Virus record (IMG/VR): IMGVR_UViG_2534681674_000034
Coordinates: 1 to 27,605 of that record
Origin: a virus
Lineage: Duplodnaviria > Heunggongvirae > Uroviricota > Caudoviricetes
Direction: 5' to 3' (one strand)
DNA length: 27,605 bases
Each line of letters opens with the position of its first letter. Position 1 is the first letter of the stretch. Positions 1,532 to 16,645 of this stretch are shown here, in pieces. Below the pieces are notes generated by a model, which worked only from the letters and a program-made list of their open reading frames with translations, was not told where the DNA came from and searched no databases. The translations under genes were made by a program, and so were the position numbers.

Positions 1532-1741
1532 TTAATTTGAATACAATGCAATTCTCGAGGACTGAAGTTTCTCGCAATTAAAATTTATCAGTTTTACTTT
1601 CTGCTCTCTGGAAACGCCTGCTTCTTTTTTACCTGAGAGCATTTTTTCGCATTCTGATTTCGTTAGTTTAGATTTTGAATATCTTGTCCAGTTAGTAGGA
1701 GTGCCACCTTCCTTTTCAATAGTGGCGGTAATTTTATACAT
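1532..1741 (-). CDS. ydaC: YdaC-like small protein, 69 aa
   Basis: Translation MYKITATIEKEGG... Start chosen at the ATG preceded by GGAGGT (5-6 nt spacing) rather than the longer track ORF. Confidence 0.65.
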   Translation of the reverse strand: MYKITATIEKEGGTPTNWTRYSKSKLTKSECEKMLSGKKEAGVSREQKVKLINFNCEKLQSSRIALYSN

Positions 1742-1928
1742 GAACACCTCCATTATTATTTCCAGTGGTTCGTTTATTCCATCTTTCGAGTGCTTCTTTT
1801 TCACTTCCACCATAACCGGTTCGGGATTCGCATCCGTTACACTTCGCTCGGTAATATCCTGAAATGGCTTTCACCGTTACTGATGGACAACCACAAAATG
1901 GACATGGTTTAACATTGTCATATCTCAT
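1734..1928 (-). CDS. ralR: RalR/Lar restriction-alleviation protein (type I toxin family), 64 aa
   Basis: Translation MRYDNVKPCPFCGCPSVTVKAISGYYRAKCNGCESRTGYGG... recognised as Lar/RalR. Cys-rich zinc-ribbon-like. Confidence 0.8.
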   Translation of the reverse strand: MRYDNVKPCPFCGCPSVTVKAISGYYRAKCNGCESRTGYGGSEKEALERWNKRTTGNNNGGVHV

Positions 1929-1984
1929 AATTTTTCTCATAAAAAATATTTCAAGTTGGCGGTGCATTACACCGCCTGGCTGAA

Positions 1985-2794
1985 TTATTCTTCTGAATTA
2001 TCGATTACACTGTATTCCCCGGTTAATACAGAGGAGTCTGCCGGATCGATTGTCAGTGGTTCCTTTTCATCCATTGATACTGCACGCTGGATTTCAATTG
2101 AGACAGGCAGGTATTTAAACAGGCGACGAATAGCCGTTTTTTTTGCCATTTCTTCCCAGTGAGTTACCCACGGCCCGTTATTACCTGCCTTACTCTGGCT
2201 GCGCACCAGTTCAATCTGTTTGCGCGTCATAACTTCAAACTGAGTCCCTCCGTCTTTCAGTCTTGCGACAGCATAGACGTGGGTCACTGGTGCATCTTCG
2301 TTTTCTCCCGGGCGGTGTATTAACTTTTCATCAAGGCCAAATTCGAAGCTAAACTCGTCACCTTCACGGACAACACGGGCTGACAGGCTGGCGATTTGAC
2401 CAGAACGGCGAGCCAGATCAATCATGCCGCGATAGCCAATGATTAGCTGAACGTTCTTTTTACCGCTCTTTTCGTTTTTATTACCAAAAGGCAGTAAATA
2501 TGCGTGGCCAAGGGCGCTACCTGGCTCAAGGCCGAGCTGTGAACACTGTACGATTGCACTGACAAAACTCATAGTGTCACAGTTTCCTAACGCTGGAACT
2601 TTACGAATTTCTGTGGTGGCGATACGGATCATACGTTCAGCCGTCATATGGCGTGGAAGAGCTGCTGCCAGTTGCTCTTTCATTGATGGCTGGTTAATAA
2701 AACTAATCACGTCGTTATTTTTAACTGCTGCTGGTGCACGGTTTCCCTGAGTTTTTTGCAGATCGGCTTTTGCGATTGGTGGTTGCTTAGTCAT
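1985..2794 (-). CDS. recT: RecT single-strand annealing protein, 269 aa
   Basis: Translation from [41 protein letters not shown]... matches RecT from memory. AAGGAA SD 7-8 nt upstream of ATG at 2794. Start overlaps recE stop. Confidence 0.93.
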
Positions 2795-4253
2795 TTGCAT
2801 ATTCCTTAGCCCAGCGGGGCAGTGATAACGTCTTAATAGCTGGCCATTCATCGGTATTGAGGCAGTCAGCCAGGGTCCTCAGATTGCGGTGATATTCCTG
2901 CTGGCCTGCCAGTTTTGCTTCTTCGCCCATCATGAAAATCTCAATCGGGTAACGTCCGCATTCAACAGTTGTGCTGGCAACCAGAAAAACGAAAGTTGGC
3001 AGCACACCAAACTGTGCTTCATAACCGTCACTGTAGAATGCATCCTGAACGTGATAGCGGTAGTCGTAATAAGCCGTTTTGAATCGTTGAATATCCGCTG
3101 TGGTTTTCACGTCCATGATCCAGTGAAATTCAGGAATAATTTTGTCCGGACGGCACCGACACAAAATTCCTGTTTCCGGATCTTCCCAGTAAATTGATGA
3201 TTCAGCGTGTCCGGCGCTTTCCACAAGCCATTGACCCAGCGGCAAAGCCATAACGCTCTGATACATGAGTTCAATTTTCCGGCCTTCTTCGGCAGTGATA
3301 ACCGTTTTTCCTGTGTTTGCGCATTCCATCAGAAACGCTTTCTCTTCTTCTTTTCCGGCGTTTGTACGGCGGTTAAATTCAGGTGCTACGATAAAGCGGT
3401 TACTGAATTCTTCCGGTTCAAGTACACGGCAGTGGAAAGCGGTTCCTAAATCGAGCGTTTTTGTCTTTGTGGTGTCCACAGGGGCATTTTTACGCCACAA
3501 ATACAGCGCCGGAGTATCAGCAATGTCGTCGAGCTGAGACTTACTGACACCGGGTCCCGCGTGGTAATTCTCATTCGAAATTCCGTAATAAATACCAGGC
3601 TCTATGTCTCCTGCGATTACGGGATCTGCGACTTCGCCAGTTTCATCACTGCAATCGCGATGCAGATCGCTGCCAGCATTCTCATTGTGCGGATGTTCAG
3701 GGCCTTCCATTTCCTCCGGCTCTTTTTCCTGAGATTCATCCAGATTTTCTTCATTAAAGGTTTCCTGATACGTTGCGTCGCCCATCACCGCGCCACAGTC
3801 AGGACAGTTGCCGCCGCCAGCCTGACCGCAGGCGGTGCAAACTTTCTCCGTTTCCTGTTGTTGCACTACTGGCTCAGGCTGTTTCGTTTCTGGCTCGTTT
3901 TGTAACGCATTTTGGCTGTTTTGTTCCGCTTTCTGGTCGTTTTGTTCCGATTCGGGCTGGTTCTGGTTCACAGAATCGCGGGTTTCAATCCCCTTAACCC
4001 ATTTCGGATCATTCGGGTCGCTAATTCCGTCAACGAACTCACCGCGATGGACTGCCAGTATTTTGTCGGCATCAGGCTGGTTGATATTGGCTGCCTGCAT
4101 AATTTTGTTTACTTCGTCAGCGGTAACTTTTACCTGATTAACCGGATTTATCTGTGCCTGAGTATCCAGCGATTGTGTGTCCTGGCGATATTCAGTTGTA
4201 TCCTGTCCCATTGCTTCAGTCGTTGCCTGTTCATCTGCCATTGCGTCAGACGG
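2787..4253 (-). pseudogene. recE: recE 3' portion (exonuclease VIII C-terminal nuclease region), cut off from its 5' portion by an IS
   Basis: Reading frame is open from the IS boundary to the stop at 2787-2789. First in-frame ATG at 4241 (track ORF 484 aa). Translation continues the RecE sequence of the upstream fragment. Confidence 0.85.
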
Positions 4254-13208: not shown

Positions 13209-13313
13209 GCCAAATTAACAATCGGAACTTCGTGAAGAGAAAGCATAATCCAAATCTGAATAATTAAGTTCAGCACTGTAAATAAAATTTAATCCTTAAC
13301 TGGAGGTATATTT

Positions 13314-13526
13314 ATGTTAAATACACAGAAAGCCATTAATGCGGAAAAATATAACGAGTGGGCAAGAAAATTCTCTGAGCAGATTTTTAAAATTACTGGC
13401 GATGAGAATGTGGCAAAAAATGAATTAGAACCGTGGACACCTGAAGGAAACGCACCAAATTATTGCTGGTGGGAGGTTGATCCGGTTGATGCTGCAAATG
13501 AAGCCATGAGTTACCACAACGATTAA
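13314..13526 (+). CDS. Hypothetical small protein, 70 aa
   Basis: GGAGG SD 8 nt upstream. Lies in a stretch that looks AT-rich by eye. Confidence 0.5.
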   Translation: MLNTQKAINAEKYNEWARKFSEQIFKITGDENVAKNELEPWTPEGNAPNYCWWEVDPVDAANEAMSYHND

Positions 13527-13558
13527 TGTCGGGAGGCCGCCCGAAAGGGCGGTAAGAA

Positions 13559-13777
13559 ATGACTACATTATTCAGAAAAGAATATCCGCAAAAAAGTAGG
13601 GCGACAGAATTTTTGTTTCTCATTCTGTTTATCGTATTGATGATACCGATATCCCCTCTAATTTTTGTCTGGGCAATCGGGAAAATAATTGAGCCAGTTA
13701 CTGAATTGTATAACGACGTGGTATGGGCGTCATTCAACACACTGCACAATAAAATTAATCCGTATAAGGAAAACTGA
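13559..13777 (+). CDS. Hypothetical small membrane protein, 72 aa
   Basis: Single hydrophobic segment (FLFLILFIVLMIPISPLIFVWAIG). Preceded by a GCCGCCC-GAAA-GGGCGG hairpin. Confidence 0.4.
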   Translation: MTTLFRKEYPQKSRATEFLFLILFIVLMIPISPLIFVWAIGKIIEPVTELYNDVVWASFNTLHNKINPYKEN

Positions 13778-14042
13778 TATGGCAACTTTGACAAAAAAAG
13801 AACGGGCATGGTTGAACGAATTACAGGAAGTTCTTGATCGCTGTCCATCACCGAAAAAAATTGGCTTTTACACCATTGGCGATAAAAGCATTTACCTGTA
13901 TGACCTACGCCGCATGGATGAAATCATGGAGGCTCTTGATAATCGTTCGTCGATGGATTGGTGTGTTGCTGTTCATGATATGAATGCAGGGTTTGATGAA
14001 AAGATTTTGTTCCCCTCATCAGTTGAAAGCACTGCGGGTTAA
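13778..14042 (+). CDS. Hypothetical protein, 87 aa
   Basis: ATG at 13778 with AAGGAAAA upstream, abutting the previous stop. Confidence 0.5.
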
Positions 14043-14052
14043 GGAGTAACAC

Positions 14053-14940
14053 ATGACCACTATAACCAAAGAGCGACTGCTGACAATCAAGCAGTGGCGC
14101 GAAACATACGGACCGGGTAGCAACGTTGTGCTTCCAGCAGAAGAAGCGGAAGAGCTGGCACGGATTGCGCTGGCATCACTGGCAGCAGAGCCGGTGGCAA
14201 AGATTATAGCTCATTACCCATTAGGAGTTGACGTAGGCAAACAAAAATTCGTACAGGCCATTAGAGAGCTTCCTGACTTTGGCGGATATCTATTTGCCGC
14301 CCCTCCAGCGCCGATAGTGCCGGAAGAAATGTATTGGCAGGATGCGCCAGTTGAAGGCAGCAGCAAAGCGGCTGCATACGCTACAGGCTGGAACGATTGC
14401 CGCGAAGCCATGCTTCAGTCCGGAAACTTTCGGGAAAATAAAGATTCGTCAACCAATAATTTTCGGAAAATCCCGGAAGCGTCAACCAGCTCTCCGGTAA
14501 CTCCGGCTCTTCTGCCTGGTGGTTTCACCATTGAGGAGGCGAAGGAATTACATGAAGACCTGGTACGCAGCCACATAAGCAAGGCCTTAAGTGGCGAAAA
14601 GATGAAAAAGAAAGATCGCGATGCTGATTTGCGCTGGATTCATGGCGTTATAGTTCAGGCAGCGTGGTTTGTAAAAGCATCACTGGAGCAGAATGCACTA
14701 TCGGGCAACTATCCGGTAACTCCGGATAGTTGGATAAGCTGTAGTGAGCGAATGCCGGATACCAAAACAGCCGTTCTTGTTGCCAGGGATTTTGGCAGGA
14801 AAGGTGACTGGCGAATGAAATGGGCGACTTACATCCCGGGGCATCCTGACGCTAATGATGGGTGGATAATACCTGGTGCGTCGTGGATACCATCACACTG
14901 GATGCCTCTACCAGAACCGCCGCAGGAGGTGCGCCAATGA
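14053..14940 (+). CDS. DUF551-domain phage protein
   Basis: 295-aa ORF, AAGGAG SD. C-terminal WISCSERMPD...WMPLPEPP segment resembles the DUF551 family from memory. Confidence 0.65.
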   Translation: MTTITKERLLTIKQWRETYGPGSNVVLPAEEAEELARIALASLAAEPVAKIIAHYPLGVDVGKQKFVQAIRELPDFGGYLFAAPPAPIVPEEMYWQDAPVEGSSKAAAYATGWNDCREAMLQSGNFRENKDSSTNNFRKIPEASTSSPVTPALLPGGFTIEEAKELHEDLVRSHISKALSGEKMKKKDRDADLRWIHGVIVQAAWFVKASLEQNALSGNYPVTPDSWISCSERMPDTKTAVLVARDFGRKGDWRMKWATYIPGHPDANDGWIIPGASWIPSHWMPLPEPPQEVRQ

Positions 14941-15020
14941 ACTGGCCTGAAGCATTTGCAATTACAGGCGTTGCTATGGCTATCGCTTTTTTAGTATATG
15001 TTATTTGTCGGTGGGGGTAA
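14937..15020 (+). CDS. Tiny hydrophobic peptide, 27 aa (below ORF-track cutoff)
   Basis: Hand translation MNWPEAFAITGVAMAIAFLVYVICRWG. ATG overlaps the DUF551 stop (ATGA). Confidence 0.3.
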   Translation: MNWPEAFAITGVAMAIAFLVYVICRWG

Positions 15021-15055
15021 AAACGTTCGCCGGGATTAACACCAAAGGAGGGAAT

Positions 15056-15160
15056 ATGTCGGATGATATATCACTGGCAATGGAAGGTGCGCTGGCTGTT
15101 GTTGCTGTTGTGGGCGTTTACTGCCTGGTTGTGTTTTTGATGGATCGACTAGGGAACTGA
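15056..15160 (+). CDS. Tiny hydrophobic peptide, 34 aa (below ORF-track cutoff)
   Basis: Hand translation MSDDISLAMEGALAVVAVVGVYCLVVFLMDRLGN. Strong AGGAGGG SD. Confidence 0.35.
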   Translation: MSDDISLAMEGALAVVAVVGVYCLVVFLMDRLGN

Positions 15161-15406
15161 ATTCATTACGATATGGGAATTCCCATATCGGGTAAAAACG
15201 GTTTGCGGTAAAGCGAGAGTTAAGTAGAATTGCTGCGGGTGCTTGAGGCTATCTGCCTCAGGCATGAACACCAAAAGGCAGATAGAGAAAAGCCCCAGTT
15301 AACATTACGCGTCCTGCAAGACGCTTAACATTAATCTGAGGCCCAATCTATGTCTCACAAATGTAGGTTAGCCTCTTACGCGCCGAAAGGCAAGGAGAAG
15401 CAGGCT

Positions 15407-15562
15407 ATGAAGCAGCAAAAGGCGATGTTAATCGCCCTGATCGTCATCTGTTTAACCGTCATAGTGACGGCACTGGTAACGAGGAAAGACCTCTGCGAGG
15501 TACGAATCCGAACCGGCCAGACGGAGGTCGCTGTCTTCACAGCTTACGAACCTGAGGAGTAA
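15407..15562 (+). CDS. hok: Hok/Gef-family type I toxin (HokD/RelF-like), 51 aa
   Basis: Translation MKQQKAMLIALIVICLTVIVTALVTRKDLCEVRIRTGQTEVAVFTAYEPEE. AAGGAG SD. ORF extends 19 codons further upstream in frame to an ATG at 15350. Confidence 0.85.
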   Translation: MKQQKAMLIALIVICLTVIVTALVTRKDLCEVRIRTGQTEVAVFTAYEPEE

Positions 15563-15630
15563 GAGACCTGGCGGGGGAGAAATCCCTCGCCACCTCTGAT
15601 GTGTCAGGCATCCTCAACGCACCCGCACTT

Positions 15631-15660
15631 AACCCGCTTCGGCGGGTTTTGTTCTTTTTG
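15631..15660 (+). terminator. Intrinsic terminator after hok (copy 1 of a duplicated terminator)
   Basis: AACCCGCTTCGGCGGGTTTTGTTCTTTTT: GC stem with TTCG loop and T-run. Confidence 0.7.
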
Positions 15661-15806: not shown

Positions 15807-16166
15807 ATGGCACTCACTGAATTCGGTAAGGCCGTTAGAAAAGCGAGGATCGATACTGACAGTACTCTTCTGACTATGTCTCAAGAACTGGGCACTACGC
15901 CAGCGTTTCTTAGCGGTTTAGAAACTGGTAGCAAAAAAATACCTCTGAAGTGGGTTAAGAAGATTGATTCTTACTTCAAGGCCAAAGGTGTAGAAATTGA
16001 AGGGTTACAGGAGTTAGCGGCAGTTGCGAATGACTCAGTTCCAGTAAACGGTTTGTCTCAGCAACAGAAAATGCTTGTAGCGGGATTCGCTAAGTCGCAG
16101 TTTACGCCGGAACAGCTAAAGAGTTTTGCAGATTTATTGCAAAAGATTAATAACAATGAGGGGTAA
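15807..16166 (+). CDS. HTH-XRE family transcriptional regulator
   Basis: 119-aa ORF, GAGGA SD. HTH-like segment LLTMSQELGTTPAFLSGLETG. Confidence 0.75.
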   Translation: MALTEFGKAVRKARIDTDSTLLTMSQELGTTPAFLSGLETGSKKIPLKWVKKIDSYFKAKGVEIEGLQELAAVANDSVPVNGLSQQQKMLVAGFAKSQFTPEQLKSFADLLQKINNNEG

Positions 16167-16168
16167 TT

Positions 16169-16645
16169 ATGTATCAAATGAGAGGTAACAGGGTGTCACC
16201 GATGCAAGAAGAAGAAATAGCCTACAGAGCTATAAACTTCTGTAATGCTATTGGTCTTACAGCCTCAAAGCGCAAAAGAAAGCGTTATGATATGTTCTTT
16301 GAAAGCCTGTCAATTTATGGGGTTACTCTTGACGTCAGGACCGACAAAGAGTGGGAGGCTCTGACGTATGATCTAACTATCGGACATTGTGACCCCGCTT
16401 CTCTAACAATTACGGTTCCCAATAAAATATATGTGAATGCTTGCCTTGGGGAAGAGCATGCGCTTGCTGTTATCTTCCACGAGCTAGGTCATTTGCTTCT
16501 TGGACACAAAGCAGTTTTACACTTTTCAGTTAAAGAACCTACTCGTATTGAGGATGCAGAATGGCAGGCAGATACATTTGCGGATATCGTACTGGAAACA
16601 ATTGGCGTGAGAACACAACAGATGTCGTTCGATTTTTATATGTAA
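16169..16645 (+). CDS. ImmA/IrrE-type zinc metallopeptidase (COG2856-like)
   Basis: 158-aa ORF with HELGHLLLGH (HExxHxxxxH). GAGGGG SD. Abuts the XRE gene with a 2-nt gap. Confidence 0.75.
   Translation: MYQMRGNRVSPMQEEEIAYRAINFCNAIGLTASKRKRKRYDMFFESLSIYGVTLDVRTDKEWEALTYDLTIGHCDPASLTITVPNKIYVNACLGEEHALAVIFHELGHLLLGHKAVLHFSVKEPTRIEDAEWQADTFADIVLETIGVRTQQMSFDFYM

Follow-up and report, generated by a model that had tools for sequence, protein, structure and literature searches.

Two conserved genes for tiny, probably benign membrane peptides between the replication genes and hok/sok of a lambdoid prophage

Do two hydrophobic reading frames of only 27 and 34 codons, located just upstream of the hok/sok locus of a lambdoid prophage, encode proteins, and if so, are these proteins toxins? 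The question was raised by a sequence-only reading of the IMG/VR virus record IMGVR_UViG_2534681674_000034 (Caudoviricetes; positions 1 to 27,605, here called the window). It suggested that the two tiny peptides, encoded in the block of small open reading frames (ORFs) at positions 13209 to 15160, could be membrane-depolarising toxins or modulators. All ORFs which it had described, including the two peptide frames, here named pep1 and pep2, were found in their places on the plus strand. In our judgement pep1 and pep2 are fairly probably genuine coding genes for benign single-pass inner-membrane mini-proteins, with pep1 coupled to the translation of the preceding gene and a hairpin further upstream taking part in translation initiation. 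The gene structure, conservation, purifying selection and linkage patterns of both genes were observed in the sequences; ribosome footprints of pep2 in lysogens are known from the literature.

The first frame, pep1 (14937-15020, plus strand; MNWPEAFAITGVAMAIAFLVYVICRWG), encodes a single-pass hydrophobic mini-protein of 27 amino acids. As had been noted from the sequence, its ATG overlaps the TGA stop codon of the upstream DUF551 gene in an ATGA at 14937; AGGAGG is located at 14924-14929. The second frame, pep2 (15056-15160, plus strand; MSDDISLAMEGALAVVAVVGVYCLVVFLMDRLGN; WP_001278454.1), encodes a single-pass hydrophobic peptide of 34 amino acids, and the Shine-Dalgarno sequence AGGAGGG ascribed to it was recovered within the ribosome-binding site AAGGAGGG at 15045-15052. 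We searched both strands of the 27.6-kb window for ATG-initiated ORFs of 20 to 45 amino acids that combine GGAGG or AGGAG at ribosome-binding distance with a hydropathy of 2.3 or more over a stretch of 17 residues. Only pep1 and pep2 were found, and the mean in composition-preserving shuffles was 0.01.

The pep1 family is represented in about 99 phage records. A tblastn search detected full-length pep1 with identities of 55-70% in 97 of such records, among them those of 933W, VT2-Sakai, Min27, BP-4795, ArgO145 and P1-like phages, where it is mostly unannotated or hidden under the feature of a neighbouring gene. Among 5.8 billion called proteins only 6 contain pep1. It is thus essentially never annotated. 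For pep2, by contrast, RefSeq genomes contain PGAP annotations as a hypothetical protein (WP_001278454.1 and variants). Protein searches for such tiny peptides were run with longer open frames as queries, and copies of both genes were collected from IMG/VR loci by means of degenerate DNA patterns for the peptide motifs. Ten diverged pep1 copies keep the length and the signature M-x-W-P-[ED]-A-F ... Y-S-I-C-R-W-G (the WPEAF and ICRWG motifs), and the gene has exactly 27 codons in 165 of the 167 IMG/VR copies. The summed Nei-Gojobori ratio of nonsynonymous to synonymous differences (pN/pS) was 0.41 in the pep1 frame compared with 0.83-1.5 in other frames; the exception was an antisense frame with a value of 0.46, which shares its third codon positions with pep1 and is not open. 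In the species representatives of GTDB the strict pep1 pattern was confined to Escherichia, Shigella and two tiny contamination-like contigs. Defective copies are rare; for example, in the Shigella phage POCJ13 (locus L002, 1542-1625) codon 3 of an otherwise conserved pep1 is changed from TGG to TAG, either a recent pseudogene or a sequencing error, and the record annotates opposite-strand ORFs across this copy.

The overlap with the upstream gene was the most constant property of pep1. ATGA was present in all 167 copies whatever the upstream gene, and residue 2 of the peptide is always T, N, S or I because the overlap needs a codon beginning with A. The upstream C-termini are of at least three unrelated types, EPPQEV.Q of DUF551 proteins (112 copies), an ISVEDVLR-like end (about 40) and NIEQEVNR (7). 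In the window the last codons of the DUF551 gene (PQEVRQ) hold the ribosome-binding site of pep1. Because of the overlap and of this position of the ribosome-binding site, pep1 is probably made by termination-reinitiation coupling. It would thus be a 3' appendage of Ea/DUF551-type genes, produced whenever the upstream gene is translated. Downstream of pep1 we found pep2 in 69 copies, a hok leader directly in 40 and other sequences in 49; in two loci from E. coli and Shigella species representatives (L021, L023) an intrinsic terminator follows directly 3' of pep1.

The distribution of pep2 was narrower. Among 5426 complete E. coli genomes, 674 carry a 180-bp segment with the gene; the median copy number is 3, and the identity is never below 90%. 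A collection of cultured phages contained zero copies of the 34-residue type. When 1.84 billion representative proteins were searched with a profile, only 15 matches were obtained; the strong ones all belong to the pep2 family, and two weak ones (P0090, P0091) led to shorter subtypes. The family now comprises subtypes of 34, 30, 29 and 35 residues with the core A-I-Y-C-L-V-V-x-L-M-[DE]-R-L, and all 119 IMG/VR matches of the corresponding DNA pattern were family members. Within the 34-residue type pN/pS was 0.29, and between the subtypes pS was 0.29-0.76 as against a pN of 0.08-0.25. Amino-acid conservation across homologous loci, by which the sequence-only reading had proposed to judge the tiny frames, is thus seen for both pep1 and pep2, whose protein sequences persist in diverged loci.

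A hok mRNA leader follows within 450 nt in 102 of the 108 pep2 copies with enough flanking sequence, and pep1 precedes pep2 in 94 of 117. The short subtypes, found in the Enterobacteriaceae-type prophage L031 and in the phages Tritos, Evi, HannyBb and mEp460_ev081, stop about 9 nt before the -35 hexamer of hok or, in the L082 type, inside the -10 region. The pep2 family is lineage-restricted and has its usual place immediately upstream of the prophage hok/sok promoter. In the short subtypes a promoter-like element TTGAA[GT]-N17-CATATT, with conserved hexamers and a variable spacer, was located about 45 nt upstream of the GTG start. It was read in L247 (HannyBb, about 1400-1500), L248 (Tritos), L082 and L056, and points to a separate transcription unit just ahead of the hok promoter. 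At the short pep2 locus of HannyBb, opposite-strand ORFs had been called by the annotators.

Evidence for translation of pep2 was found in a RIBOseq study of E. coli O157:H7 Sakai, where its homologue is listed as XECs145 (Huecker et al. 2017, PMC5597208). In lysogeny broth (LB) XECs145 had 79 reads per kilobase per million (RPKM) in the transcriptome and 346 RPKM in the translatome, with a ribosome coverage value (RCV) of 4.35 and a coverage of 0.99. The corresponding values were 121 and 150 RPKM, 1.14 and 0.84 in brain-heart infusion (BHI), and 73.3 and 1.1 RPKM, 0.01 and 0.37 under BHI stress. The authors predicted an inner-membrane location with one transmembrane helix and classed the ORF as 'real' (PMC5597208). 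XECs145 is an interval of 162 bp with a longer upstream start and also covers the 3' end of pep1 and the spacer; furthermore, near-identical copies occur at 4-8 places per O157:H7 genome of the Sakai type. Therefore the footprints are not assignable to pep2 alone or to one prophage. We presume that pep2 starts independently from its own strong ribosome-binding site.

The third element of our account is located between the first two ORFs of the block. The sequence-only reading had correctly given the hairpin GCCGCCC-GAAA-GGGCGG, but had placed it at 13529-13548; the true start lies seven bases to the right, and the hairpin spans 13536-13552, or extends to 13553 with a closing G-U pair. It is part of a cassette of ribosome-binding site, hairpin and spacer (13532-13558, plus strand), which consists of GGAGG at 13532-13536, the stem-loop at 13536-13553 and an AAGAA spacer. 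The hairpin folds as a GC stem of 7 bp with a GAAA loop of the GNRA type. GGAGG is separated by 22 nt from the ATG of the following DUF4014 gene at 13559, and about 5 nt are left once the hairpin is formed. The cassette, CAGGAG[GA]CCGCCCGAAAGGGCGGTA-N(3-7)-ATG, precedes at least four gene families (DUF4014, DUF551-type, a 60-residue and a 158-residue gene) and coincides with mosaic breakpoints at 13529 and 13560. Spelled as CAGGAG[GA]-CCGCCC-GAAA-GGGCGG-TA-N(3-7)-ATG, it was seen in the window, in loci L026-L030 and in many IMG/VR loci. Most likely the hairpin at 13536-13553 is an element of a split ribosome-binding site, which would bridge the distant GGAGG to the DUF4014 start codon. A function as terminator of the preceding 70-residue ORF was ruled out: there is no T-run after the stem (AAGAAAUG is found there), a terminator scan made no call on the 13536 hairpin, and in L027 and L028 the cassette is present without that ORF upstream.

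Are pep1 and pep2, then, small membrane-depolarising toxins of the type I or holin kind? Both are short, very hydrophobic and single-helical, with best 17-residue hydropathy windows of 2.48 for pep1 and 2.94 for pep2 compared with 3.22 for Hok. They adjoin a bona fide Hok toxin, and a prophage hokW is known to contribute to lysis upon induction (PMC8621323). Nevertheless we consider this explanation quite improbable. Searches of Pfam, NCBIfam, PHROGs and PADLOC linked neither peptide to HOK_GEF or to another family, of toxins or otherwise, and hhalign against Hok yielded a probability of 1.8%. No antitoxin RNA of Rfam overlaps pep1 or pep2; a weak antisense match to sok at 15164-15296 was below threshold, and minus-strand promoter-like sites, such as those at 15080-15053 and 15021-14993, were at chance level with 7 found and 5.2 expected; an antitoxin RNA of a new kind is conceivable. 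The ribosome-binding sites are strong, and the RNA fold of 14900-15240, globally not distinctive with a z of -1.9, showed no compelling sequestration. Most type I toxins have basic termini, whereas those of the two peptides are acidic or neutral (net charge 0 for pep1 and -3 for pep2). Of the attributes of type I toxins, pep1 and pep2 share the single predicted transmembrane helix, but they belong to no known toxin family, and translation that is off during normal growth does not apply to pep2 with its strong AAGGAGGG and the RCV recorded for its homologue in normally growing Sakai lysogens (PMC5597208). Even less probable, in fact very much so, is the opposite view that the frames have no function as proteins and are chance ORFs or regulatory upstream ORFs in which the act of translation counts, e.g. 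against Rho polarity. The frames are indeed very short, pep1 is unannotated nearly everywhere, and broken copies occur occasionally, such as the TAG codon of POCJ13 and several frameshift fusions. Yet purifying selection on pep1 and pep2 is frame-specific, the motifs (WPEAF and ICRWG; IYCLVV..M[DE]RL) are kept at near-saturated synonymous sites, the length of pep1 is all but fixed, both genes persist in unrelated flanking contexts, and chance would provide such an ORF pair only 0.01 times.

The neighbourhood of hok invites another explanation, namely that pep2 is a third component of prophage hok/sok modules and serves as a Hok antagonist, immunity factor or co-factor, or feeds hok/sok expression. 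A membrane peptide just upstream of hok is a plausible modulator, and for hokW-sokW it was reported that prophage Hok rises on induction by mitomycin C and aids phage release (PMC8621323). A hok leader follows 94% of the pep2-family copies with enough flank, the four diverged subtypes all abut the hok promoter, the upstream neighbours vary (pep1, an ORF6N gene and others), and the linkage of pep2 is tighter to hok than to pep1. On the other hand, most hok loci do without pep2: DNA of the hokD type was present in 4726 genomes, while pep2 was joined to hok in about 715, and hokW of 933W works as a toxin-antitoxin system in the absence of pep2. Conversely, some pep2 copies have no hok (L016-L020 and the L056 type). 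The linkage may reflect shared descent of one mosaic module, and pep2 has no sequence relationship to Hok. We regard such a role as unlikely. A wider proposal is a long shot: the pep2 family would be the protein component of three-part hok/sok loci and modulate Hok, while pep1 would be the universally coupled partner of Ea/DUF551-type proteins in Shiga toxin (Stx) phages. If it were true, pep2 expressed in lysogens might act as a membrane-level antidote or a timing factor for Hok-assisted lysis on induction.

Since the ribosome-binding sites are strong, the termini not basic, antisense partners not detectable and footprints present in growing lysogens, constitutively toxic peptides are improbable. 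We therefore favor benign membrane mini-proteins, pep2 possibly in functional association with hok, and the original proposal of membrane-depolarising toxins is not supported. The peptides would insert such that the acidic N-terminus faces outward and the C-terminal Arg inward, and both may bind or tune a membrane protein of host or phage in a non-lethal manner; the modulators of the original proposal are possible in this sense. Several points weigh against this interpretation. The membrane placement and any function of the peptides are deduced from sequence. The topology of pep2 is uncertain because it has no positive-inside signal. The XECs145 footprints are shared with the 3' end of pep1 and with several prophage copies, and footprint data are limited to pep2, pep1 being below the cut-off of 93 bp implied by the tables of the Sakai study. 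The sampled sequences are mostly closely related prophages of Shiga toxin-producing E. coli (STEC), so that common descent inflates the linkage counts, and the sums of pairwise comparisons behind the pN/pS values are not independent. Finally, no compensatory changes were detected among the cassette copies, in which the hairpin stem is nearly invariant and the few variants all carry mismatches; for this reason its structural role can only be presumed.

The hok/sok locus itself occupies 15203-15562 on the plus strand. Its predicted promoter consists of TTGCGG (-35, 15203-15208) and TAGAAT (-10, 15225-15230), and is followed by mok (15350-15562) and hok (15407-15562), the latter with a HOK_GEF match of 3e-23. 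The Rfam model sok (RF01794) matched 15237-15412 with 120 bits, and its start, which is that of the hok mRNA leader, agrees with the predicted promoter. The 5' end, GGGUGCUUGAGGC, is R1-like, and we take it to correspond to that of the R1 hok mRNA.

How did pep2 come to lie between pep1 and this promoter? Two direct repeats of GGGTAAAAACG flank a segment with pep2 and a palindrome: the left one (15015-15025, plus strand) is a module junction that overlaps the pep1 stop codon, and the right one (15190-15200, plus strand) corresponds to the junction between pep1 and the hok promoter in 933W. This phage has a single copy and connects pep1 directly to the hok promoter at GGGTAAAAACGG, a sequence that occurs twice in the window (15015, 15190). 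The repeats suggest that modules were exchanged at a short junction sequence. In another genome the hok module is preceded by a paa adhesin gene, with the junction right at the pep2 stop and the palindrome kept. In loci L016-L020 (about 1600-3100; some E. coli and metagenome contigs) the order DUF551-pep1-pep2 is followed by a hok promoter remnant that reaches the -10 hexamer, and hok is replaced by a convergent gene for 214 amino acids and a PAPS-reductase/DUF3440 gene. From these junction comparisons pep1 is assigned to the Ea/DUF551 module, at its 3' end, and pep2 to the hok module, on its 5' side, with recombination apparently occurring at short shared junction sequences. We also considered whether pep2 is a diverged duplicate of pep1, an idea based on the GGGTAAAAACG repeats and an in-frame LVV[YF], but hhalign gave a probability of 1.4%. 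A truncated Hok paralogue was likewise rejected on account of the hhalign result and the missing HOK_GEF match.

The palindrome mentioned above, CGATATGGGAATTCCCATATCG, is a perfect 22-bp sequence centred on an EcoRI site (15169-15190), located at about -47 to -68 from the predicted start of the hok mRNA. It is unique in the window, and 0 are expected by chance. We examined it as a part of a pep2 cassette and rejected this, since in L011 it precedes hok although pep2 is missing, and since it is absent from short-subtype loci; it is imperfect in L003 and L012. Hence the palindrome belongs to some hok modules and travels with hok, not with pep2. It could be a protein-binding site or a barrier to read-through.

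The pep2 frame is open backward through the 3' part of pep1 (15012-15056), and fusions of pep1 and pep2 of 70-74 amino acids exist in databases (P0053, P0056, P0057, P0058; loci L019, L020). They arise by frameshifts at differing positions, among them a G5 to G6 run and a T-run. The same fusion would result in the window if a -1 slip occurred on the G5 run at the stop codon of pep1 (TGG-GGG-TAA). The fusions are probably sporadic mutations or sequencing errors, while programmed frameshifting is possible. As 'Rosetta-stone' evidence for an interaction of the peptides they were discarded as weak, the frameshifts being scattered over several positions.

The remaining genes of the block are less unusual. 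Although the three short ORFs had been thought to be without recognisable families, all of them matched one. The ORF of 70 amino acids (13314-13526, plus strand), with the ribosome-binding site CTGGAGG at 13300-13306, belongs to phrog_4659 (E 2.7e-51) and is a hypothetical protein in RefSeq. The ORF of 72 amino acids (13559-13777, plus strand), for which one transmembrane segment is predicted, is a member of phrog_1832 and matched DUF4014 (PF13198) over its full length with 91.3 bits (gathering cut-off 23.2; E 5e-26). The ORF of 87 amino acids (13779-14042, plus strand) belongs to phrog_1714 (E 9.5e-51). The gene preceding pep1 (14053-14940, plus strand) encodes an EaA/Ea22-V2-type protein of 295 amino acids with a C-terminal DUF551 domain (PF04448; residues 226-291, 69.4 bits, cut-off 22, E 4.9e-19). 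An imperfect tandem duplication of 33 nt with 71% identity at 14425-14488 encodes a repeated segment of the NFRxxK..S(T/S) type in the linker upstream of the DUF551 domain. A sequence search of the PDB with the 70-, 87- and 295-residue proteins gave nothing meaningful. A role in defence or anti-defence was discarded for the ORFs in 13209-15160, as a PADLOC scan yielded zero matches.

The block starts with an intergenic AT-rich spacer (13209-13313, plus strand), which is the left mosaic junction after a DUF977/Ren-like gene. The description as an AT-rich island applies to 13209-14052 with a GC content of 0.393, but not to the rest, since the DUF551 gene (0.515) and pep2 (0.486) are close to the 0.491 of the whole window. 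Upstream neighbours are an S24/helix-turn-helix (HTH) repressor (cI), a P22-Cro-like protein (cro), a YdaT-like and an O-like protein (DnaT domain), lambda P, DUF1627 and the DUF977/Ren-like gene; downstream follow mok/hok with the sok RNA region, a pair of HTH and M78-peptidase genes, DUF968, RusA and the Q antiterminator. The whole window is a lambdoid prophage of the STEC type, i.e. lambda-like and from E. coli. Because the block lies between the replication genes and hok, it has the same place as the nin region of lambda in the early-right operon. It may be viewed as an accessory nin-region-like part of this operon that is composed of small, independently exchangeable modules on one strand. 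The same stretch of 1.95 kb was found in one RefSeq genome with 96.9% identity and the same annotated order, the DUF551 gene being fragmented there. At least 80% of the stretch was present in 182 complete E. coli genomes and parts of it in 2912 of 5426. Thus 13209-15160 is a mosaic and an ordinary block of accessory genes, and the term 'cargo' used in the sequence-only reading is justified.

Two observations were made just downstream of hok. At 15571-15652 there is a sub-threshold Rfam match to isrK, an Hfq-binding small RNA of Salmonella, with 27 bits (gathering cut-off 50; E 0.005), which overlaps a hairpin like that of an intrinsic terminator at 15631-15648. The HTH gene (119 amino acids) and the M78/ImmA-IrrE-like metallopeptidase gene (158 amino acids) at 15807-16645 have weak PADLOC similarity to regulators of the HTH_VI, capH/capP and RmrA type and could be a second stress-responsive repressor/protease switch of the prophage.

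What is new in these data? The existence of pep2 and ribosome footprints over it are already on record. A full-text literature search for the peptide motifs retrieved no paper beyond the supplement of the Sakai RIBOseq study, and nothing in the searchable literature appears to describe the pep1 family with its invariant coupling, the linkage between pep2 and hok, or the recurrent cassette. A conserved gene of 27 codons is absent from nearly all annotations of Stx prophages, including 933W and Sp5/VT2-Sakai, even though these are among the best-studied mobile elements. A second predicted membrane peptide has ribosome footprints in O157:H7 lysogens and has a hok/sok toxin locus beside most of its copies. 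If either peptide modulated Hok, lysis timing, superinfection or a host membrane protein, this would bear on the induction and release of Stx phages. In practical terms, exact coordinates, consensus sequences and DNA search patterns are now at hand to annotate both families, and the recurrent cassette of ribosome-binding site, hairpin and start codon can be used as a marker of module junctions.

Several known systems invite comparison. Like Hok/Gef with Sok, represented by hokW-sokW of Sp5/933W, pep1 and pep2 are small hydrophobic peptides, by prediction of the inner membrane, in the same prophage segment, and pep2 lies 77 nt upstream of the hok mRNA start. Unlike Hok/Gef, they have no homology to this family, no mok-like leader, no fold-back mRNA architecture and no detected antisense RNA; their termini are acidic instead of basic, and the pep2 homologue has ribosome footprints in growing lysogens. 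The hairpin cassette resembles the split ribosome-binding sites of genes 38 and 25 of phage T4, where a stable hairpin lies between a far GGAGG and the start codon (Nivinskas et al. 1999; PMC3014915). In T4 gene 38 a spacing of 22 nt is cut to 5 nt by the structure and initiation is enhanced (PMC3014915), and the figures of the window cassette are the same. The cassette differs from the T4 sites in phage group and sequence, in the lack of covariation and in its coincidence with mosaic recombination junctions, and is known here from sequence.

As products, the peptides are comparable to the small single-pass membrane proteins of up to 50 amino acids detected by Ribo-seq or tagging, such as the XECs set of O157:H7 Sakai (Huecker et al. 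2017). Save for one V/I substitution and the longer assumed N-terminus, pep2 is identical to XECs145, and pep1 has the same architecture. In contrast to that set, pep1 is a separate, unannotated family below the size range of the study, and its authors did not remark on a link of pep2 to hok. The arrangement of pep1 is like that of coupled gene pairs with ATGA overlaps in phage operons, with ATG and TGA overlapping in every copy and the ribosome-binding site inside the upstream coding sequence. It differs from the usual ATGA pairs in that the pep1 cistron comprises only 27 codons and that the same overlap recurs behind at least three unrelated upstream genes.

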